Shown here: positions 15,894 to 56,591 of the stretch, piece by piece | How positions within the stretch are numbered: position 1 is the stretch's first letter | Layout: the number at the start of each line of letters is the position of its first letter | The notes under the pieces: generated by a model | Told to the model about the DNA's origin: nothing | Database searches by the model: none | The model's input: the letters and a program-made list of their open reading frames with translations, nothing else | Program-made: the position numbers and the translations under genes | Assembly (NCBI GenBank): GCA_010015805.1 | Contig: ML978125.1 | Location: 62,001-126,000, forward strand | DNA from: Rhizodiscina lignyota | Taxonomy: Eukaryota | Reading direction: 5' to 3' | DNA: 64,000 bases

Positions 15894-17715
15894 CTAAGCT
15901 GGAGCCGCACTATCACGACGCTCCTTTCGCTCGTTGAAACGAAGCTTCAACGGGGCCAACCCAAGCGTGAAGTGATCTCTCGTCTTATACAAAAGATCTC
16001 TACCATCCTCGCCGGGGGCAAAATCGACGTCGAAATAGTGCAACAGCTTGGCGACGGTCGTTCGGATCTCCAACATTGCAAGCGGTCGTCCAATGCAGCC
16101 GTAAACGCCTGTTGAACAGACAAGTCAGGTGCTTGCTCGTGAGTTGAGAGATGAGTACTAACCTTGTGAGAATGGGGAAAATGCTGTTCTGTTCGTAACC
16201 ATATTAGTCTTTTCATACCAGCGCTCCGGCACAAAGCCCTGCGGATCCTTGTAGCATATGTCGCTTCGACCGATGACGTATTGGGGACAGAAGACGTCAG
16301 CATTGCCAGGGATGTGCTTGCTGCCAATCTCAATCCCCTCTGGCGGCGTGCTGCGGTTGATCGCTGATGGCACAGGAGGATGGAGCCGCAGTGTCTCAAA
16401 GATACAACCGTTGAGATAGTCATTGTTGGCGATATCGCTATTCTCCACGTTACCCTCAGAATCGGTGTACGGTTTGAGCTCTCTGCGGAGGCGTTGAACA
16501 AGACTTGGCTCCGCAGCAAGATGATAGAACAGGTGCGTGAGTGTTGCTGCAGTGGTGTCGGAGCCGGCAACGATGACCAAGCGGCTATCACCCTGGAGAT
16601 ACGTGAGCTCCAAGCCTTCTGGCTCGCGCAAGCTACCTTTCTCTTGAAAAGGTTCCAATAATGCGGATGTAATGTCGGGGATTTTGGCGCCTTTCTGTAC
16701 GGATTCAGCTCTATGGCGGATTATTAGACAGGATACTTGCCTCCATTCGCTTCTGCATCTGCTCGGAACAGTAATTGATGAATTTCCAATAGTCCTTGGC
16801 AGCTCCTGGAATCGCGACAATCACTCTAAAGACCCACGGAGGGAGCTTCGCGGCCATCGGTTCCATCCCAGCGTTTAGCAGGGCGATAGCCCAATGCTCT
16901 TCTCCCTTCTCCAACATGTCAAACGATTCTGATATACGCCGGACCCATCAGTCAAGCGTGACAATGTTGTTTCGACAAGAAAGCTCACCTCCAAAAGCTA
17001 GATCGCCCATGACGTCGTATGAGAAGTAATTAAACCAGTCAGATACGTTGACGGGTTGGACTCCGCCAAACGCTCTCAGCTGTTCTACAAGCCTGTTCTC
17101 ATACGGCTTCATGCGCTCCTCGTACCCTCGCAAGGCCTTGTCGCTAAAGGCAGGACTCCAGATCTTCCGTCGCTGGTCGTGCATGTCTCGTTTGCGAGAG
17201 GTGTGCAGGCTCGTGAGTGGATAGTCTTGGTCGTACCATGGTCCTTTGGAACACTTGGTACCAAGTCCGTAGACCTTTTGAGGGCCGTCAGGATGGATGA
17301 TGGAGAGTGTGTTCGGTCCTATTCTCAGGAACTGTCCGTACTTCTCATGCAGCTTCTCCAGCTTGTACGGCGCGTCGGCGTTGGTCGTAACTCGAGTAGG
17401 CCACCAAAAGTTTGACAAGCGAGCCATGAATGGCCCAGGGAAGTTCCGCAAGGGGTGGAAGAATGCACGGTACAGGAGTGCACTGCCATTTACGCTCAAA
17501 AGGTAGAAGAAGGATGCGGAAGAAACAACAGAGAAGGCTTGAGGGATTTCGTAACCGGCGAGGCGGGAGAGTGCAAACACAGCAGCGCCATTGAGCAACA
17601 AGAAGACTTGAAGATAGAGGACGCCGTGCATATGGTGTTCCCCTCGCTTGAAGTAGAGCAAATGAGAAAGTACGCCGATGTTGGCGGCTAAAGCATTGAT
17701 GAAGATGGACGACAT
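15894..17715 (-). CDS. Cytochrome P450 monooxygenase
   Basis: N-terminal TM and FPGP, I-helix AGSDTT, ETLRLHPP, PERW, heme motif PFSQG|VYGCIG across an intron; ORFs 16948-17904, 16711-16917, 16158-16820, 15894-16076. Confidence 0.93.
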
Positions 17716-18430
17716 GATGAACGTGGTTGTGAGGAATAGCGCTAGAGTTGTGCAAGGCGACAACTTACTTCGGCGATAGAATATATTCTTGTAGTTATTG
17801 CTCAGGATACGCCCGCACCATGTCTGCCGTCGGCTGCAGCATACCTCGAGACTGCAAGCCACTGCCATTCCGTTGATTGCGGGGAATCCGGGGCAAACCA
17901 CCATGTTTTAGCGGCCGCAGCACATTGTCCTCGGAAGCGATCCCCCAGCCCCTTTCAGAAAGGAAAGTATGTCTTCCGGTCCCGATTTGAAGCCTATTGG
18001 GCCTTTGTGTGTCCTCGGTCTCCGCCTTGTGGCTTAACTGGGCCGCGGAAACCCCACGTTCTAGCTCTTGCATGATCCATTGTGCCGAGAAAGCTACTTG
18101 CGGCGTCGTGCCAAATCGAATACTCTTTGCTTGGACGGGTTTATTGAAGATAGTAAATAATCATTGATGAAAGGTGGCTGTTGATGTGGATATAGTGTAT
18201 GTAATAAGGATTGTTGTCCATCCTTTCAAGTTCGGCCTGTAAGATTTTAGCGCCACTCACCTCTGATTGGATGACATAATCGACGAAAAAGCGTTCCTCC
18301 GATCGTGATACCAAACCACTGCGGCTCTTCTTAATCAATTGTGAAAATTAGTACGTGACCGTTTCGGATCACATGAAAATTAGCAAAAAAAAAGAAGAAA
18401 ACAGAAAATTGGCTTGTGCAATTAAAATGC

Positions 18431-18438
18431 AAAAAAAA
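18431..18438 (-). terminator. RNA polymerase III oligo-T terminator
   Basis: T8 run on the minus strand 11 nt after the discriminator A; a second T run near 18385-18393. Confidence 0.75.
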
Positions 18439-18508
18439 GAAGACTGTAATGCATCGGCCGGGAATCGAACCCGGAGCTGGCGGAGACAGATGGCAACCAC
18501 CAATTTTA

Positions 18509-18560
18509 CTAAGCAGTAGGGTTAGAATGTTGATTGGATTAAGGAAGTGGAGAGTCGTAC
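18509..18560 (-). other. Spliceosomal-type intron 2 in tRNA-Gly (52 nt, after the D-loop GG)
   Basis: GTACGA donor, TTCTAAC branch site (18527-18521), TAG acceptor 12 nt downstream. Confidence 0.85.
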
Positions 18561-18569
18561 CCATTAAAC

Positions 18570-18625
18570 CTATTTAGGAAGTTAGCATTTATTAATTTGA
18601 ATGCGGAGACTTGTGCTGCTCGTAC
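18570..18625 (-). other. Spliceosomal-type intron 1 in tRNA-Gly (56 nt, between tRNA positions 9 and 10)
   Basis: GTACGA donor, TGCTAAC branch site (18587-18581), TAG acceptor 11 nt downstream. Confidence 0.85.
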
Positions 18626-18663
18626 CACCGATGCTGGATTGTTGGAGGCTCAAACTTAAGAAT

Positions 18664-18671
18664 TATTTATA
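18664..18671 (-). promoter_or_regulatory. TATA box upstream of the tRNA gene
   Basis: TATAAATA on the minus strand at -37 to -30 relative to the mature tRNA 5' end. Confidence 0.6.
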
Positions 18672-20194
18672 ATAGGAAAACTCTTCCCACCCAACCGCGC
18701 CGATCTGCATCCTCGCTCATTTGCTTGCGTGGCACTTGGTGTGGATCGCAGCAATGGGAGTTGTCTGTAAGTTAAAAGATACTTCTTAATTATATTTATA
18801 TATGCTAATGCATTTATCGCTGTTTGTGCATCGCAGTATTTAGGAGCGTTCATCTTCTCCTTAAGTTATATTCATAATGAAAGATTCCAGGCCCTCAGAG
18901 CCGTCCCGCTACTCGTGCAAACCTCGTATGCGCAGAAGGGCGAACATGCTCCCTATAGTGCTCTAAGGCCTGTGTGGTACTCTTGAGTGACGTCTTTTTG
19001 TCTATATTGTATACAAATTGACTTGAAATGAGGCTGCAGCGTCGACTCACGCCCTTACTTCCGCGAACGACGACAACAATGCGAAACTTAACTAGCTCTA
19101 TGCACAAAAATCCTCCTCAATCCAGTGCATCCAATATCGCGTCAAGTCCGGCTCTACGACCTCGAAGCCTTTCGTCGGACGGGCAAAAACGTGTCAATGC
19201 CTTTCTTATCAGACGCGAGGTCATGGGAGGGCCAACGAGATACGAGGCAGCCAGCTGTGGAACATACCAGTTACCAAACTTCTGCCAACGGTAAACGATC
19301 CGACCTCGAGCGGGAGCTCCGTTAGTATGATTTGACTAGACATAATGCTCTTCCTCCACCACGGTCGAAACGCACACAGCAGCAGCACATACGATTACCA
19401 ACTCCCCCGAACAGCTCGAAGGCAGGCCGCTCGAAGCAGCATTCACCCACATCTCTCACGACAGAGGCCGGGCCTTCTCGAATGGTATGTTCTACCCAAC
19501 TGCTAGGCTCGGAATTAGATAAAGCCGCTCATCCTCACACTTATCCCTATGGTCATCCTCACGCACGTCCATCAAGAGCTACGAGCCATATCCAGGCGCT
19601 GAGAGACCGTACACCGCTATCAGAAACGGCATGACCAGGACAAGAAGCAAGAGCTTCCGGATACAATGTAAGCTCTACTCTTGAACAACTCTAGGTGAAT
19701 CTCGAAAACATTCAATGGTAGTTACAGACGAACAAAGAGAATATATTCCTAATGCGGACTCGCTGGCAGGCTGGGCTCATAGCTATCAACGAAGAAGTCA
19801 AAGCTTTAGAACGAGTATCACGATCGTTGGTAAACAGTGAGGTTTCGATGTACCTGGTAAGAAAGCTCGTCAATGGAAAGATGCGAAGGGTTCCAGGGGC
19901 GAGAGGGTAGCGGACTCTGCACCTGATGATATGTCGGGGAATTCAGGTGAAGGAGTTCCAGAAAAAGTAGAGAGCCGCTCGCCGGCCGAAACATGCCTTG
20001 ACAAATCGCCTCATGTTCGTCACAAGGGATATCAGGGAGAAGGATCGGCTTAGTATGGGACGAAATATATTCACTCTCTACCATCTCAGTAATGCATTGT
20101 AAATTTCTTGAGTCGGTGAAATTACTCGTAGCAAAGTTTTTGAAAGCTACTAAGGCCTAGCTCATTTGCAATTTGAAGTAGCAAACCATACCAA

Positions 20195-21292: not shown

Positions 21293-23947
21293 CGGCGAAT
21301 GGAGTGGTCGAACGTGCGCCTTGCGGCACCATCGGAGACGATATCCAAGCACATGCGCAAGAAGTCCGCGGACAACAGACTGGGCGGGCTAATGACAACG
21401 CTGAAAAAGCCGCCATATCTCAGGAGTCGAGCAGGCATTGCGACACTCCAGGCATCTCCATAAAGAATGACGAGGCACATGGACTTCCTTCCAACTCTGC
21501 CACTGTTGATGCACTTCGTGAGGTCGAGCCGGGCCAGAAGCGTCCGGCCACAACGCCGACGTCATTTGACTTCGCAAAATATCGTAGTATCCATCGAGAG
21601 AATCGTACGTTGAATCATGACGCATGATCGCATAAGTGCTAATTGTTCTTCAGCAAATGTTGCCCCCCTTTGTGAGGCCCCGGCCGTAGTTACCCGGCTT
21701 GCCCAGGTGCCGTCTCAGGAGGCACCACCAGATCCGCGAACTGGTATTGCCGCCCTCATACAACTAGATGCGACTCTTGTTGCGGTGGACCTCGAAGTGT
21801 GGGATGACAACCGGACTCCGCATCTAACCCACGTCCTCGAAGTCGGTTGTGTGGTATTACGCACTAAACTGATCCGGAAGGCGCCTAACGAGCGGGTCTC
21901 CAAGCTCATGGGCGAGTCCGACCGGCATCATTTCATCATAGCGGAGAATATAAATGACAAGCAAATACACGTTCCGCGAGCCATTTATGACTTTCAGCAC
22001 GGCAGATCCGAGACCTTGCCGGAGGCCGAAGTGGCCGCTAAACTTCGTCAAATCCTCTTACCAGACCGTGGACCAGTTATCCTCGTTACTCACGGTGGTA
22101 CAAACGATATCGGGTGGCTTCGAGATATGGATGTCGTCCTTCCAGCAGACATGCCCAGGCTAGACACACAAGACTTCGGAGGTAGAATCAGCTTGGAGAA
22201 CTTGTGCGAACGGCTCCAGATACCACTAGACTTTCCATACAACGCGGGCAACGATGCTTATGCAACGTTGGGAGCACTACTGGTCATGGCTGGCCGAACC
22301 GATCGCCCTTCAAGATCCATTAACGAGAAGGTCTCCTCGATGCTGCCACTCCTCAACGCGACAGCACCTCCGCCATCAGGCTCGGTTGCTAATGTGACCT
22401 CTGGCAAGGGCATGGAAAAAGCGACAGCACCTCCTCCGCCAACAGACTTGGTTGCCAACGTAACCTCTGGCAAGGGCAAGAAAAAAGCGATAGCAGGCCC
22501 CCCTGATCAGCGAAGCTCTTTCCAAGACCAATATTTGAGAGCCAGTATGGGCACGGATCCCTACTCAGCCGAGTTACTTTCCCTCCGGAGCAAACACATG
22601 TTTTTGGCCCACGCAGAGGAGACCTTTTGCCTCTTTCCTGACGGACTCATCAACATCACCAGCGTGCCAGTGTTCTGGAGAAAGGGTTTCGACAAACAGA
22701 ACGCTCCGCGGCTCTTTCCGTTGGATACGAAGGACGTCAGAGAACCACGACGGATCAGAGTGATTGGAGATACGACCCCGAATTGGAACGAACGACCAAT
22801 TGGAAGGGCATTCGCCGTCTTCGAAGCCCTCGATAAAGTCAGGGAGGGCGTAGAAATTCTAGACTTCGAGAACTTTATGGGAGCCTCCACCTATTGGATC
22901 CAATACTTTCCATGGAAGTCGGTGTTCCCCAAGCTATCCAAACTTGGGTTCTACCAGTGTCCGAGATTGGGCTTCGATATGTTCTTTGATGAAGATGTAG
23001 TTCAACGCGTCCTTGGCCTCAAGGAGGAAGGTGTTGAAGTCGATTACGACTTCCACGACTTTGCGTGCCTTGGCCAATGGACTGCAGAGCAGTCTCAAGC
23101 GCGTGTTCTCTTCGGAGTCCTTGCGAAGCATACACCACAGATCACTCAAGTACCTTGGCTACTGCAGGAAGACACGGTCTTCACTCGACACCTACAATCC
23201 ATAATGGAAGGTCAAGCTCCTCCTCTTTGCCACGCATATCCTAGGGAGACGCAGAGCAGTTTGACCGGCCAGCACATACTCTCATGGCTCCGTGATCGGA
23301 CGACGGCCGCAGACTCAAAGAACGCCGAGAATTTCAAAGTTAGCGACTTCGAGTTCGCCCAGACGCTTAGAGAAATTGGCCCATTGACGCAGAAAACGCT
23401 CCTCCAGTATGAAAAAAAAATCTTCTACTGCAATGACAAAGGGCACAAAGCCGCAATGATTGGCTTTGGTTTCTCGAAGACCAGGTTGAGGAGTAGGAAG
23501 AATGTAGAAGATTCAAAGCTCTTCGAGGATCCCAGCGAGTTCCACAGCCTGGATGACAATATGGTCTGCGCGGGTTGCGACCGTTGGCAGAGCTGCGCTG
23601 ACGCTCTTCTGGGGAACCACAGGGGCGTATGGGTTCAGAAGGCCGCGATCGTTGACGACGCCCTGAGGGAACTGGCCGACACACAGCGTCAATCGGAGTC
23701 TTCACCGGAACAACGCGTCGCCGAGCTGATCGAAATTTGCACCACGAAAGATAGTGATCTTGAGAAATTCAAGAGGCTAAAGCAGGGGCATTCCCCAGTC
23801 GAGAAGGCCAATGGCGCCCGGTACGGGCTAATCGATGCGCTGGCGATCCCGTCCGAGTCGAAAGAGGTCTGGTTGAGTAGTAAGGAATTCCATGAAGGCG
23901 CTGAGATGGAGTTGCCATCCAACTATCGCTTCATTGAAAGGAAGTAG
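21293..23947 (+). CDS. DEDD 3'-5' exonuclease (Gfd2/YDR514C/QIP-like) domain fused to a large unknown C-terminal region
   Basis: VAVDLEVW..EVG..HFII..ILVTHGGTNDIGWL..LDTQ..SLENLC..YNAGNDAYATL in a 776-codon ORF. A frame-consistent intron at 21605-21653 joins the upstream ORF 21280-21627. True start not resolved. Confidence 0.75.
22358..22495 (+). repeat. In-frame tandem duplication (63/66 bp) in the linker of the exonuclease fusion
   Basis: ATAPPPSGSVANVTSGKGMEK / ATAPPPPTDLVANVTSGKGKKK / AIAGPP. Confidence 0.85.
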
Positions 23948-28342: not shown

Positions 28343-29284
28343 CTATGAATACAGCCTCGAAAAGCCTCCTTTAGGAGGTTGTAGCCAATTCTTCCCATCA
28401 TACTCATTCTCGCCTTCTATCATGTGGAACGTATAGATGAACCTACTCTTGCCGCTTGTATTCTTCTCGCTCTTGTGCAGTATATTGCCATGAATGAGCA
28501 CGAGCGTGCCGGCTTTGACCTCTCCAATTGTGTATTCTTCATCCTTGTCCTCGACGTTGGAGTCAAGACCGACAGGAAACTGCGCACCACTATTGTCCTC
28601 AAAGTCTGTGCCCGTGCCTTTTCTTATGAACCTACTCTTGATAGGTGCCCGCTTGTGACTTCCTCTCGCAAAGCTGAGGCATCCGTTCTCTATCGTCGCA
28701 TCCTCGAGGGCGTACCAGAAGCCAATCGCACTCGGCGGGTTGGTATATAGAAATGTACTGTCCTGGTGCGGTGGCACACGCCCTCCAATCTCTGGCTGTT
28801 TGCATATGACCATGCTCTGCAGAACTCTTGGATCCCTGAACCCCAATTTCTGCGCAATGGCAGCGTTTCTTGGAGACAGTGAGATGCGCCTGAACCCCGG
28901 ACTCAGTTCGTGCAGATAGTGCCCGATCTTGTTGATCGCCCTCTCTTTCGGCTTGATCAATTCCCCACTGGGCGAAAAGGCGTCTTCCTCGAAGAAGAAG
29001 CGCACTTTGTCTCCGCTCGTGAGAAAGTACTCATCGCCGACATGCGCGTTGCCATTGTCGCCAGTCGAAAACTTGGTCATGGGATGCGTGTCTAGGGAGA
29101 ACTCTGCGAGCATCCGATGGGTCTCGGAGAGCAGTTCTGATACTGTGGCTGGGTCGAGCGCGTCTGGAATGAGCAAATAGCCATTTTCGTCCCAGAACTT
29201 GAGCTGCTCTGACGATAAGCCGTCGCTGTCAGCTACCGGAGCGGATGTGGACGACGGTGGGGGAGAAACACGGGAGGGTGGCAT
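28343..29284 (-). CDS. Phytanoyl-CoA dioxygenase family (PHYHD1-like) Fe(II)/2OG dioxygenase
   Basis: INKIGHYLH, QSMVICKQPEIGG..PHQDSTF (HxD), IHGNILH, SRFIYTFH. Confidence 0.92.
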   Translation of the reverse strand: MPPSRVSPPPSSTSAPVADSDGLSSEQLKFWDENGYLLIPDALDPATVSELLSETHRMLAEFSLDTHPMTKFSTGDNGNAHVGDEYFLTSGDKVRFFFEEDAFSPSGELIKPKERAINKIGHYLHELSPGFRRISLSPRNAAIAQKLGFRDPRVLQSMVICKQPEIGGRVPPHQDSTFLYTNPPSAIGFWYALEDATIENGCLSFARGSHKRAPIKSRFIRKGTGTDFEDNSGAQFPVGLDSNVEDKDEEYTIGEVKAGTLVLIHGNILHKSEKNTSGKSRFIYTFHMIEGENEYDGKNWLQPPKGGFSRLYS

Positions 29285-30996: not shown

Positions 30997-32735
30997 ATGC
31001 TTTCACTCGCTGTGCGCATCCTGACAAACCCATTCATTCTTATATCATTATTCATAACCACGATAATTTCTATAATATCATGGGCCTGCAAACCGACACT
31101 CGTTCCAAAAGAGATACCTTGGGTTGGAAAGCCGCGGAGTAGAATCTTCCCACGGACGACAGCGTCACTATTATGCTTCTTTAATGTGCGAAAGATCTTC
31201 GATGAGGGATATAGAAAAGTATAGATCCATTGAAATGACTGAGTCATCTTGGCACTAACTGAATGATCCAGTACTCTCAATATGGCAAGGCATACATTTA
31301 CCCGTCTTACTCTGGTCCTCCGGAGGTCATCATACCTCGATGCGACCTTCCATGGCTGCTGGACCAGCCAGAAACAGTCGTTAGCTCCGAGGCGCTCCAA
31401 CGAGACTTAATGGAAGGCCAATACGCCTTCACCGACCCACAGCTACTCCAATTCCCATTTCACAGTCACATCTTGGTACGATACCTCACCCGCCGAGTTG
31501 CCTGCCTACTCCCCGATATTTGGGACGAGCTACAGCATGCTATCAGCACAACATGGGGCTTCAACAACGTAGAATGGCGAGATATCTGTGTTTGGGATAA
31601 CATGATGTCTATCATTGCCTCAACCTCGAACCGTATGTTTGTCGGGAAACCGCTTTGTCGCAACGAGGACTACCTCTCCAACGCCATCGCATTCGCAAAC
31701 GACGTCACTCTCAGCGTAACAGCGCTATCCCTCGTCCCATCATTCCTCAAACCTCTGCTTGGACCGTTGATCACACTTCCAAACCATTACCACTACCACC
31801 GAACCGCCCGACACACCCTCCCCATCATCAAAGACCGCCTCATGCACATGCGCCGCAAGCAATTTGATCCAACGTACAAATGGACGGAACCAAACGACTA
31901 CATCACCTGGCATATCCAGCAAGCAATGTCAGAAAACATTGGCGAGGAACTCGATCCGATCAGAATAGCCCGCCGGTTAATGCCCATCAATTTCGCAGCA
32001 ATCCACACAACCGCGCTCACAATCACGAACGCAATCTTTGACATTTTCAGTGGACCCAACGCGTCCTTCGTCGTCGAATCGCTACGTGAGGAAGCTGAGC
32101 GGGTGTATGCAGAATGCAATGGACACTGGACGAAAGACGCCGCAGCCAAATTGCTACGCCTCGATTCTGCACTGCGAGAGAGTATGCGTTTGAGCGGATT
32201 CTTGACGCGCAGCGTATTCCGCAAAGTCGTGTCCCCGGATGGACTGACGCATCCGCGCGAAGGCTGGACAATACCGCAGGGCGCGTGGGTGGCTGTAGAT
32301 GTTATTAGTACGCACCACGATGACTCGATCTATGATTTTGCTGGCGGCTATGATCCCTTCCGCTTCTCTCGACCGAGAGAAGAAGCTTTATCTACAACAT
32401 CTTCCGCATCTAACACTCCGCCACCATCAACGCCGCAAGACTCAACTTGCGATTCCGCTTCAGACAAGGACGAGGTGCTCTGGCTCAAGAACCAAGGAAT
32501 GGTTAGCACTTCAGACACCTTTCTCGGTTTTGGTGCAGGCAGGCATTCATGCCCTGGCCGTTTCTTCGTTGCACATGAACTGAAGATGTTGCTTGTGTAT
32601 ATCCTGATAAATTACGATATTGAGCCAATGGCGCAACGTCCGTCGAATATGTGGTTCGGCACGAACATCTTACCAGACATGAAGGCTACCATCAGAGTAC
32701 GAAGAAGAAAAGGTGCGAGTCCAGAGGATGTTTGA
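30997..32735 (+). CDS. Cytochrome P450 (ent-kaurene oxidase-like group)
   Basis: TM exon from 30997, intron near 31220-31271, NFAAIHTT, DSALRESMR, YDPFRF, FGAGRHSCPGRFF. Confidence 0.93.
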
Positions 32736-52571: not shown

Positions 52572-53918
52572 TCAAGTCTTGATATTCAGCACAAATCCAG
52601 ACTTCATGACTCGAACACAAACATAGATCAATCCAGCAGCGCATGCCGTTACACCTCCATAAACCCACAGGCCCGTCCAATGTAACGGATCGACGGTACC
52701 AAGAATGGCACCAGCACCCGCGCCACCAGCCAACAAGCCGAGTCCGCCAATTGCAAAGCCCTGGCCAATGCGAGTGCCGATCATGGATTTGTTCTCCGTT
52801 AGTACGCGGAAGCATACAGGTGGCAGCGCGACGACGACACCGCTGAAAAATCCCGTGACGGCGGCTTCGATAATCATTCCCGCCGCGTTGTGTACGCCCA
52901 GCAGACACAGCATCGTGACGCCCAGTAGCATTGTGAACGGTGCTATAGTATTGAACACGCCGATGCGGTCCGACAGTGCGTTAGGCAGGATCCGCCCCAG
53001 GATCGACCCGGCGTTGAAGATGGCCGCTGTGTAGAATGCCAGCGAGGTATCGGTGAAGCCACGGTCCGCTGGGTAGAATGAGATGTAGAAGAGGAGCGCG
53101 GTCTGGCCAATGAAGCAGACCAGCACACCCAGCGTGAACAGCATGAACGGCGCATCACGGAACGCGGACCAGTCTACTATGGCGCGCGGCTTCGGGACGC
53201 GCACCCGCATGCGTAACGCGGCTAATGGGACCATGAAGGTCGCTAGGGCGATGAAGCCGATGCAGCGAACAGCCCAGGGAAAGCCTATACGCGAGATGAG
53301 TCGATAGAGCACGATGGGATAGATGACACCGCCGAGCGAGGAGCCGGAGGACGCGATGCCAATGGCGAGTCCAATGCGCGTACTGAACCAAGTCGGAATC
53401 AGCGACACAGTGGGCACGAAGAGCAAGCCGGCGCCGATGCCAACGCAGAAGGCCTGCGCCAAGAGCGCCTGCCAGTATTCGGTGCACAAGGAGAGCATCA
53501 TGTGACCAAAAACGATCATAAAGCTACCGGTGATGATGAGAAGGCGAAGGTAGCCCCTGTCGAAGATGGGTCCAGCGACGACGCCGGTAAGCTGAAGCAG
53601 GAAGCATTGGATGGAGCCAATCCAGGAGATGTCGGCGGAGGAGGCGTCGAAGAGCTCACCGGACTCGTAGTAGGTTTGGAAGGCGCTGAAGGCGCTGACC
53701 AAGCCCCACGTATTAAAGAAGAGCACAAAACCTGCAGCGACCTGGAGCCATGCGAAAAGTCCGCCATCTGGAGGAGGTGGAGGCCCCCTGGTATGATTCT
53801 CGAGTGCGGGTTGCTGCTCGGTGTCGGTCTCGGATGGGCTCCCTTTGGGGGGATCATTGTGAAGATTCATTGGCGTCATCTTTTCTTTGGGCACATCTTC
53901 AGCGACTTGAGGAGGCAT
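52572..53918 (-). CDS. MFS monocarboxylate (MCT/Mch)-type transporter
   Basis: PPPDGGLFAWLQV..FNTWG, ISWIGSIQ, GPIFDRG, GSSLGG, GRILP; intronless. Confidence 0.92.
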   Translation of the reverse strand: MPPQVAEDVPKEKMTPMNLHNDPPKGSPSETDTEQQPALENHTRGPPPPPDGGLFAWLQVAAGFVLFFNTWGLVSAFSAFQTYYESGELFDASSADISWIGSIQCFLLQLTGVVAGPIFDRGYLRLLIITGSFMIVFGHMMLSLCTEYWQALLAQAFCVGIGAGLLFVPTVSLIPTWFSTRIGLAIGIASSGSSLGGVIYPIVLYRLISRIGFPWAVRCIGFIALATFMVPLAALRMRVRVPKPRAIVDWSAFRDAPFMLFTLGVLVCFIGQTALLFYISFYPADRGFTDTSLAFYTAAIFNAGSILGRILPNALSDRIGVFNTIAPFTMLLGVTMLCLLGVHNAAGMIIEAAVTGFFSGVVVALPPVCFRVLTENKSMIGTRIGQGFAIGGLGLLAGGAGAGAILGTVDPLHWTGLWVYGGVTACAAGLIYVCVRVMKSGFVLNIKT

Positions 53919-54267
53919 ATTGACAGCAGAATAAAGAAAGCAGATGACGGCTGATAAATGTGGTTGTTTGAGAATTTTGACGTATATACAGACCTTCTTA
54001 AGTACCAACTAGTGTGTATTCCGCCGAAATGGGGGAAAGGCCGCACGCCACATTACATCCAAGGCATGGAGTGTTCAGTGACGGGATAACTACAGTACGA
54101 GAGAATTTGCCGACTTGTGGATCTTCAAGGGGCTTTTCGCCCGTGACGGCGGAACTAAATTTGCCAAGCCTTCGGACCTGGATACATCATCTACGACCTC
54201 CATAACCTCACACCCATTTTCTCCGCCGCGTAGGAGGCTGATCAATATTCATTGACGACGGCTAGCC

Positions 54268-56591
54268 ATGATTGACGTACTAGATGGAGAGCTAGATGGC
54301 GTCTCAATCGACCAAGAGATGCCAGCTAAGCGCAGGAAGGTTCGCAAAGGGACTCGATCTTGCTGGGAATGCAAACGACGGAAGATCAGATGCATATTCG
54401 CGTCGTCCCACGATGCCGTCTGCCTCGGCTGCCAGCGGCGGCGTTCGACTTGTGTCAGTCAGGATATGCCGGAAGAGTTGTCTCCGGCAAGAAAAGGCAA
54501 CCGGTATCTCGCGGAGCGGATCAAAAGAGTAGAAGATTGCATGAAAGACTTTCTTGCTAGCAAACATGTCGACGGGATAAGCCATACTGAGGAAGAGGCA
54601 CGGCGGGACAGTCGTTTAAACCCTGATACCGCAACTGCTCGCCCTGATGATTCAGAGTCCTCAACAATTCGAGTTCCTCTCACGCAAAAAGAGGTACTTG
54701 AACCACTCATATCCTGAATTCTTTCCTAATAGCTACTTAGAGCCTCGGAGACCCTGTACTAAATTCATCACCCCTCACACCAAAGTCGCAAGATGTTTCA
54801 GATCAAGCAGAGACCGAAACAGTCCTCCGTCACTTGTTTGCAGCCTTTCCCTCCCAAGAGGATACCAAGATCCTGCTCAAAGAGAGCTCTAGAACGTCAC
54901 GCTACAACGATTTGATCAACACTCAGTCGCATAGCAAGTTGACCCCCGAAACGCTAGCGGCATCGTACCCCGAAGCTGAACTTCCTCGTCGCAACGCCCA
55001 CCCAGTCATTTTGGCCAGATGTATGCTCACACTTGCCATAACTCTCCAAATACCGAGTAAAGACAAGTTCCTCGGCCTTTCTGAACCGCAGAACACAATC
55101 ATGCGTCGTTTGGTGACGGCTGCTAGGACTTGGGTAACGACCAAGGAGGAGATGCAGGGCACGGTCGAGAGTCTGATTTGCACCATTCTAGAGGCTGTAT
55201 TTGAGACAAACTGTGGCAACCTTCGACGGGCATGGGCTGTCTATCGTAGGGCAATAACTGCCGCTCAGTTGATGGGCCTTCACCGCTCTCCCATCCCTGC
55301 GCTGAAACACATCGACCGCGAGATTGATGCTAAGCCAGAGATTATGTGGTTTCGCATCGTGTACATGGACCGTTATCTCAGTCTACTACTTGGCCTTCCT
55401 CAGGGCACATCTGATAAGAGCATGGGAGCCATGTCGGTTTGGCAGAACGAACCACCCCTTGGCAGATTCGAGCGCCTACTCACGGTTATTGCATCTCGCA
55501 TCTTGGAACGCAACGAGCGTGATTTTGCCCCTAGCGAACTCATGACAACCCAATCCATCGATGCAGAACTATTGAAAGTGTCGAAGAGCATGCCGGCAAG
55601 CTTTTGGCGTCCAGCGAATTTCCAGGGCCTCACCGCAGGAGAGCCCGATGCCTTCTTGGAAACTCTACGCCTAGGAGCCCAGGTCTACTACTATAGCCTG
55701 TTGATTCAACTCCATCTACCATATATGATGCTAATCAGCAACAATATCGAGCACGAGTATTCCAAGATTACTTGCGTCAATGCTGGTCGGGAAATATTGA
55801 TGCGCTTTATCGCTCACCGAACCTTCAACCCCGTTTCATCCTGCTCGCGCCCTGTAGACTTCTTTGCGCTCTTGGCTGCAATGACGCTTCTACTTGCTCA
55901 TCTCAACACTCATTATCATCGAGAAGCGAGCAATTTCCTGGCCCACCAGCGCTTGAGCGACCGCGCCATGCTAGACCAAGTCCTGGAGATAATGGAAGTG
56001 ATGAGTAACGTCAACGAGGACGTAATATCTACAAGCAGCGCCAAACTGGTCCGACGGTTACTCGCTATGGAGACGGACGCAGCCGAAGGAAGCAACTATA
56101 TCGCTAGAAGCGTAAGAGGAGATGACAGTGTGCAGGAGGACAACGAGGACAATGAGGAAGGTGAGGAGCTTCGCTTACGTATCCCGTATCTCGGTGTCGT
56201 CAAGATTACTCGACAGGCTCCCATTTCTCGAGAATCTCCGCAAGGGAATGCAACATCTCGGCCGTATCAGCCTTCCCAGGCCGAGCTCTTACCGCCTATA
56301 GATGAACAACCGCTTAGCCATCTGAATGACATGGCCGAAGGCTCCACGATTTCGGGGAATATGCTGGCATCGGAACGGTCGAATGCACAGTTACAAGCAT
56401 CCTTGTATGAGCAGTCCATGCTGCAATATCCCAGCTCCAACCATGACAACATCGTTTTGCAGCCACCTGTTGGACCCCCTCCCGTGGCGGCTGGCGTCGA
56501 TGACTGGGTCTTCCAGGGAGTCGACATGGCGTTCTTCGACAGCTTGATGAGAGGCACGACTCGCGTGGATGATTTTGGGATAGAGCAGTGA
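54268..56591 (+). CDS. Zn(II)2Cys6 transcription factor with fungal TF middle region
   Basis: RKGTRSCWECKRRKIRC..CLGCQRRRSTC; intron from about 54694; ORF 54834-56591 with GNLRRAW, DRYLSLLLGLP, WVFQGVDMAFFDSL. Confidence 0.92.

Follow-up and report, generated by a model that had tools for sequence, protein, structure and literature searches.

A predicted tRNA-Gly(GCC) gene of Rhizodiscina lignyota with two spliceosomal-type introns in the D-arm and six extra bases at the 37/38 intron site

A tRNA-Gly(GCC) gene in three exons

The DNA analysed was a 64,000-nucleotide stretch of Rhizodiscina lignyota contig ML978125.1 (assembly GCA_010015805.1; positions 62,001 to 126,000 of the forward strand), referred to here as the window. 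Judged by its sequence, the minus strand between 18634 and 18450 of this window is a tRNA-Gly(GCC) gene in three exons, whose component parts and flanking signals are presented in Table 1. When the exons are joined by coordinates, a molecule of 77 nt is obtained, which ARAGORN calls as tRNA-Gly(gcc). This agrees with the first-pass annotation of the locus, which had described a 77-nt joined molecule with the bases TCTGTC (18490-18485) immediately following A37. Deletion of TCTGTC leaves 71 nt with a 7-nt anticodon loop, as that annotation had also proposed, and ARAGORN folds this shorter molecule into a full cloverleaf that is likewise called as tRNA-Gly(gcc). As the six bases are followed by a T, removal of either TCTGTC or the next frame, CTGTCT, yields an identical product.

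On unjoined genomic DNA, comprising both the window and a 301-nt genomic stretch, ARAGORN predicts 0 tRNA genes, and Rfam returns nothing at the gathering level across the whole window. Sub-threshold Rfam matches alone were obtained for the region 18000-19000, including one to the mascRNA model over exon 3 (18.6 bits, against a cut-off of 42.5), and this weak resemblance only reflects tRNA likeness. A B-box scan of the 64-kb window produced one match at 0 mismatches, which belongs to the split tRNA-Gly(GCC) gene. The DNA of the locus is identical, with no variant, in one contig (word depth 155) of X1, a DNA-like contig set and the only public run that contains it, although this run may be the source of the assembly itself and is thus not independent support. 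No paralogues of the locus at 80 % likeness occur in that run, in which it is found in the one contig only.

Table 1. Positions of the exons, introns and flanking signals of the predicted split tRNA-Gly(GCC) gene in the 64-kb window
Feature	Position	Strand	Description
TATAAATA box	18664..18671	-	37 to 30 nt upstream of tRNA position 1; putative role with Pol III or Pol II
Exon 1	18626..18634	-	9 nt; positions 1-9 (5' acceptor strand, U8 and G9); identical to type A relatives
Intron 1	18570..18625	-	56 nt; GTACGA ... GCTAAC ... ATAG; between positions 9 and 10; putatively spliceosomal
Exon 2	18561..18569	-	9 nt; positions 10-19 (5' D-stem strand, D-loop to G18 G19); most of the A box
Intron 2	18509..18560	-	52 nt; GTACGA ... 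TCTAAC ... TTAG; inside the D-loop; putatively spliceosomal
Exon 3, whole	18508-18450	-	59 nt; positions 20-73 and the six extra bases
Exon 3, first part	18491..18508	-	Positions 20-37; 5' anticodon stem strand GGTGG; loop nucleotides 32-37
Nucleotides 32-37	18496-18491	-	TTGCCA; anticodon GCC at 18494-18492
TCTGTC	18485..18490	-	Six-base insert at 37/38; interpreted as a canonical tRNA intron reduced in length
Exon 3, second part	18450..18484	-	Positions 38-73: U38, 3' anticodon stem strand CCGCC, 4-nt variable region AGCT, T arm with B box, 3' acceptor strand, discriminator A
T8 run	18431..18438	-	Starts 11 nt after the discriminator; Pol III terminator-like

For comparison, relatives were sought in public metagenome contigs using a pattern made up of GCCA, a gap, and the 25-nt T-arm and acceptor end, and at least 120 loci were recovered. 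Among the 123 matches listed, 119 could be parsed, with sixty-nine being intronless and fifty carrying an insertion of 11-27 nt at 37/38. The two nearest sequence types among the matches listed (types A and B) have the D-arm GTTTAGTGGTAAAAT and the loop TTGCCAT, and are fungal in style. Two of the loci, L072 and L080, are tRNA-Gly-like with a broken acceptor stem (4/7 pairs) and are surrounded by inverted repeats (CCCCCAACCAAACATCTGTGG before, its complement after); by their sequence these may represent a tRNA-derived mobile element.

Compared with type B the 71-nt exon sum has only six differences, and compared with type A seven, all of which lie at paired positions and keep the pair, a pattern that goes beyond chance. 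In the anticodon stem the changes relative to the relatives are C-G to G-C at 30:40, A-U to G-C at 27:43 and C-G to U-G at 29:41, while the acceptor pair 5:68 has gone from U-G to C-G and the tertiary pair 15:48 from G:C to A:U. The last of these, the Levitt pair, accounts for the single difference between exon 2 and the nearest relatives listed, where A15 is matched by U48, and an identical 15:48 switch separates two metagenome sequences that are otherwise the same. Since every difference preserves a pair and all unpaired positions are the same as in the relatives, there is no sign of neutral decay in the exons. Likewise, the features by which tRNA pseudogenes are recognised, namely uncompensated changes in stems or conserved loops and loss of the terminator, are absent, with 0 of the 6-7 differences uncompensated and the T8 run present. 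The pair-preserving changes may, however, all be older than the insertions.

From the start of exon 1 onwards, no stretch of at least four T residues precedes the T8 run, and none lies inside the 185 nt, including intron 1; the listed relatives have similar T runs followed by GC. Upstream, a strict TATAWA at -45 to -20 is found in 4/45 of the fungal-type relatives listed. Many of the listed fungal-type tRNA-Gly(GCC) 5' flanks (L001-L120) share a CATCAA motif, which immediately precedes position 1 in one sequence type, while in the other it stands (TTCCATCAA) about 25 nt upstream, and this shared motif may be an upstream promoter element. The locus itself lies in a 2.4-kb gap without sizeable open reading frames (ORFs), and its surroundings yielded neither an ORF nor a further exon; a P450 gene starts 545 nt downstream (17904) on the same strand. 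Pfam identifies two cytochrome P450 proteins, a PhyH-type dioxygenase, an MFS transporter and a fungal-specific transcription factor within 40 kb (genes at 15947-17904, 28343-29284, 31263-32735, 52572-54008 and 54834-56591), a neighbourhood which, by its domain content, looks like a secondary-metabolite gene cluster. The fungal transcription factor domain, the P450s and the MFS transporter point to an ascomycete-like fungus as the origin of the window, as do the taxa in the protein atlas. An uninterrupted ORF of 776 amino acids with a DEDDh exonuclease-type domain is also present on the plus strand (21617-23947), and a homologue search with this ORF retrieved itself alone at E <= 1e-20 among 7,999 scored candidates.

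Splicing signals of the D-arm introns

Introns were compared with the U2 type of spliceosomal intron, defined here by a GT donor, a CTRAY branch 8-30 nt before a YAG acceptor, a length within the range of the host and exact restoration of the host RNA upon removal. Both D-arm introns begin with GTACGA, carry CTAAC 11-12 nt before their end and terminate in TAG, and the host RNA is exactly restored by their removal, so that at the level of sequence both have all the features of this type. The host intron set was obtained by crudely screening the window for GT...AG segments linking long open reading frames. This gave twenty-one candidates, mostly 49-62 nt in length with CTRAY branches and YAG ends, and the 56- and 52-nt D-arm introns fit these in both length and signals. 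Donors starting with GTACG are found in 3/21 candidates (GTACGT twice and GTACGC once) and GTACGA in 0/21, while both D-arm introns make use of GTACGA. Given that the borders of the insertions are fixed to 1-3 bases by the tRNA alignment, the occurrence of donor, branch and acceptor at both insertions is far beyond chance, for which a rough estimate is about 1 in 10,000 per insertion.

The similarity score of the interiors of the two introns was reached by 913/5000 shuffles and no further copies of either intron were found within the window, and there is thus no evidence for an introner-like family. Target-site duplications were restricted to overlaps of 3 nt (GGT) and 1 nt (G), as expected at splice junctions. 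A bulge-helix-bulge motif, sought at the intron borders as a 4-bp helix between two 3-nt bulges, was observed in neither of the two folds examined, the minimum-energy and the centroid fold of the 185-nt precursor. The split D-arm was found in none of the at least 120 relatives' loci listed, its pattern gave 0 matches in viral contigs, and no second copy of the split architecture was found in the contig collections scanned. Two matches to the pattern in contigs of bacterial MAGs were rejected as chance, as they lie in unrelated DNA without the remainder of a tRNA.

Among known systems, the multiply interrupted tRNA genes of C. merolae, cryptomonad nucleomorphs and archaea are described, in the available portions of PMC3728597, as bulge-helix-bulge substrates of the tRNA endonuclease. 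As presented there, these genes resemble the one in the window in having more than one intervening sequence per tRNA, including in the D-arm, and in being missed by standard finders, but differ in that the D-arm introns described here have spliceosomal signals and no bulge-helix-bulge in the minimum-energy fold. Fungal U6 genes, which are transcribed by Pol III, have up to four spliceosomal introns (Tani and Ohshima 1989, 1991; Canzler et al. 2016, cited in the accessible part of PMC5855946), and according to the same source spliceosomal introns are also carried by U1, U2 and U5 snRNA genes and by ascomycete rDNA, a Pol I template (Bhattacharya et al. 2000, cited in the accessible parts of PMC5855946 and PMC6652019). 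As far as these accounts extend, the fungal snRNA and rDNA introns share with the D-arm introns the canonical donor, branch and acceptor, otherwise unconserved interiors, the presence of several introns per small RNA gene, a non-Pol II host and a fungal genome. Unlike in those cases, the host in the window is a tRNA, its internal exon is 9 nt long and a second, unrelated splicing system would be needed for the one RNA. A literature search, with most subscription papers outside its reach, turned up no tRNA gene reported to contain a spliceosomal intron. An engineered case is said to exist, in which Kohrer, Vogel and Domdey in 1990 placed a pre-mRNA intron in a yeast tRNA gene, where it was reportedly spliced.

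The six bases at the 37/38 site

The six bases occupy the site at which the relatives have their canonical intron. Among the matches listed, a 37/38 intron is present in 46/47 genes of the two nearest types, the shortest being 11 nt (L105), with other lengths of 14, 15 and 16 nt and then 17 and 23-27 nt. These length variants suggest that internal deletions of the 37/38 intron occur in the family. Sixteen of the forty-two unique introns of the listed relatives start with TC, and that of L097 starts with TCTGT, as in the window gene. On the basis of the same 37/38 site and the shared first bases, TCTGTC looks like the beginning of a canonical intron, and it probably descends from the canonical 37/38 intron of this family, whatever its present fate. 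The gene's own anticodon-arm pattern gave 0 matches in metagenome, genome and viral contigs.

The likeness to the canonical introns of the relatives includes the site, the flanking loop (TTGCCA before and T after), the possible pair between nucleotide 32 and intron position -3 and the restoration of a 7-nt loop, as well as, for several of the listed relatives, the first bases TC or TCTG. The relatives' introns, however, are 11-27 nt long, while the six bases of the window gene leave no room for an intron hairpin or a 4-bp anticodon-intron helix, and their excision is putative. The first-pass annotation had taken them for a probable ultra-short canonical intron. This reading is supported in part, by the exact 37/38 site, the intron in 46/47 of the nearest listed relatives, the compensatory changes in the anticodon stem and the possible U32-G(-3) pair, but not as regards length, which falls below the 11-nt minimum among the fifty intron-bearing relatives listed.

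Whether an insert of this size could serve as a substrate of the tRNA splicing endonuclease (TSEN) depends on the 3' site. There, according to the available text of PMC10485636 and bioRxiv 10.1101/2022.09.03.506465, a bulge of 3 nt is needed, and the proximal anticodon-intron pair that closes it is the conserved requirement. Nucleotide 32 pairs with intron position -3 in 41/42 unique relatives listed. In the window gene, tested at the sequence level, U32 can pair with the G at intron -3, which leaves a bulge of U, C and U38; U33 faces a U, G34 can pair with the C at -5, and C35, C36 and A37 together with the first intron base make up a loop of 4 nt in which the 5' site lies. The resulting pattern of pair, mismatch, pair and mismatch is common to the window gene and 6/42 unique relatives listed. 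In the minimum-energy fold the G at -3 pairs with C35 rather than U32, and a random purine at -3 would permit the pair with nucleotide 32 half of the time. In place of a multi-pair anticodon-intron helix, there is only a pair, a mismatch and a pair opposite nucleotides 32-34. In length, the 6 nt compare with a minimum of 11 nt in the fifty listed relatives, a tRNA intron minimum of 11 bp given for Cyanidioschyzon merolae in the accessible part of PMC3728597, and 11-25 nt given for Arabidopsis tRNA introns in that of PMC13728533. In the literature search, to which most subscription papers were closed, none of the canonical nuclear tRNA introns reported was below 11 nt in length. Nucleomorph tRNA introns of only a few bases have reportedly been described, by Kawach et al. 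in 2005. In base complementarity, the six-base insert of the window gene is compatible with the minimal TSEN rule.

Maturation, decay and other fates of the locus

The reading we prefer, to which we assign a probability of roughly 0.4, is that the split tRNA-Gly(GCC), whose sequence keeps all the features of a functional tRNA, is a working gene with a three-step maturation. In this model, a 185-nt precursor would be transcribed from around the TATA box to the T8 run, and the spliceosome would remove both D-arm introns and so rebuild the D-arm. Only then would the mature body be available for docking by the tRNA splicing endonuclease, which would cut after A37 by distance from the body, and before U38 in the 3-nt bulge (U, C, U38) closed by U32-G(-3), upon which tRNA ligase would join the halves to a 71-nt tRNA. 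The sequence itself shows the anatomy, the correspondence in position with the relatives' introns, the pair-preserving divergence and the possible anticodon-intron pair; transcription, both kinds of splicing and their order are steps that we infer. The further proposition, that this is a nuclear tRNA gene which would be expressed only via two unrelated machineries in a fixed order, with the spliceosome acting first and endonuclease and ligase then removing a 6-nt intron, is tentative, the balance being somewhat against it.

The proposed order of splicing draws on the way in which the substrate is recognised. According to the available portions of PMC10485636 and bioRxiv 10.1101/2022.09.03.506465, eukaryotic TSEN reads the mature tRNA body, of which the acceptor stem and D-arm are part, and locates the splice sites by measuring their distance; the first of these sources agrees, in the part available, with the earlier statement that TSEN recognises the tRNA body. 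As the D-arm which TSEN contacts is assembled only after exons 1-3 have been joined, spliceosomal splicing would be expected first, and the same order put forward in the first-pass annotation is reasonable as a deduction. Three arms (acceptor, anticodon and T) are present in the fold predicted for the 185-nt precursor, but not the D-stem, which consists of four weak pairs between exon 2 and exon 3 across intron 2. The z-score of this fold for the whole molecule is only -1.6. The fold also contains a 9-bp helix with one bulge between 18624-18616 and 18516-18507 (minus strand), which pairs the start of intron 1 (after its G) with the end of intron 2 and the first two bases of exon 3. As modelled, this helix would extrude intron 1, exon 2 and intron 2 together in a single loop and mask the outer splice sites.

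For a working gene speak the clean, covarying exons, the complete splice signals, the intact flank and terminator-like run, the possible anticodon-intron pair and the precedent of fungal U6 and rDNA. Against it stand the split A box, the internal exon of 9 nt, an intron half the known minimum and an architecture that is unique among the at least 120 relatives' loci listed. The A box is not only split by the introns: its distance from the B box also exceeds the usual one by about 50 nt, and with the box so divided and displaced Pol III could start inside intron 1 and miss exon 1.

The same difficulties could mean that the gene is a recently dead relic, inactivated by the insertion of the D-arm introns and/or the internal deletion of its anticodon intron to six bases, in which case no mature product would be made and the six bases would be a scar that is never excised. 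We hold this to be only a little less probable than a working gene. Within 185 nt the locus has three structural lesions, and its A box is split; the intron is shorter than all fifty in the listed relatives, among which internal deletions at 37/38 do occur; and the architecture, besides being unique among those loci, is a variant absent from three contig collections. Furthermore, tRNA-Gly(GCC) is normally multi-copy, and the loss of one copy would thus be tolerated. Against decay stand the 0 uncompensated changes in 71 exon positions, although a very young pseudogene would still fit, the completeness of donor, branch and acceptor in both introns, and the intact 5' flank and terminator-like run. 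A dead gene of 71 bp would also have had to gain two introns, independently and exactly, and to suffer a deletion before any disruptive point change, which seems an unlikely order of events.

An exapted or Pol II-hosted tRNA-like element is improbable. Under this alternative the locus would belong to a TATA-driven non-coding RNA or a long P450 leader with ordinary introns, the tRNA part being a passenger or a released small RNA and the six bases having no role in splicing. The TATA box at -37 and the P450 gene, the nearest downstream and on the same strand, are compatible with it, and Pol II transcripts are the place where spliceosomal introns are normally gained and kept. It sits poorly, however, with a T8 run directly after the tRNA, as in the ordinary Pol III genes of the family, with the tertiary covariation of a tRNA kept in the exons, and with surroundings in which neither an ORF nor another exon was found.

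The last alternative turns on which anticodon stem is formed. ARAGORN folds the 77-mer with a GGTGG/CTGTC stem, including three G-U pairs, and a 10-nt variable loop, such that the weak alternative fold raised in the first-pass annotation does arise; at -16.9 kcal/mol it is, however, 8 kcal/mol worse than the GGTGG/CCGCC cloverleaf with a 13-nt loop (-24.9 kcal/mol), and it discards the compensated stem. On account of the compensated changes relative to the relatives, and of the 4-nt variable region in 42/42 unique intron-bearing relatives listed, GGTGG/CCGCC is the right stem. Retention of the six bases in a working 77-nt RNA, with either the weak stem and 10-nt variable loop in which ARAGORN accepts it as tRNA-Gly(gcc) or a 13-nt anticodon loop, is therefore very improbable, since the weak-stem form would forfeit that energy and the compensated stem and would give a glycine tRNA with a long variable region.

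Each of the two leading fates carries its own meaning. If the gene is dead, it would be a rare snapshot of the exact gain of spliceosomal introns in a non-coding, non-Pol II gene, which bears on how introns are gained. Genes of this kind are missed by tRNA annotation, with both ARAGORN and Rfam blank on the genomic DNA here, and if the split gene is indeed expressed, no standard finder would detect its like, so that the tRNA genes counted in eukaryotes could fall short of the true number. Should the split gene work as preferred above, and its product be made, tRNA genes would be a new host of spliceosomal introns, extending the precedent of U6 and rRNA to the most abundant class of Pol III genes. 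The fungal tRNA endonuclease would then accept a six-base intron, a new lower bound at about half of the shortest canonical nuclear tRNA intron documented in the sources consulted, and this would support recognition of the tRNA body together with one anticodon-intron pair as sufficient for cleavage.
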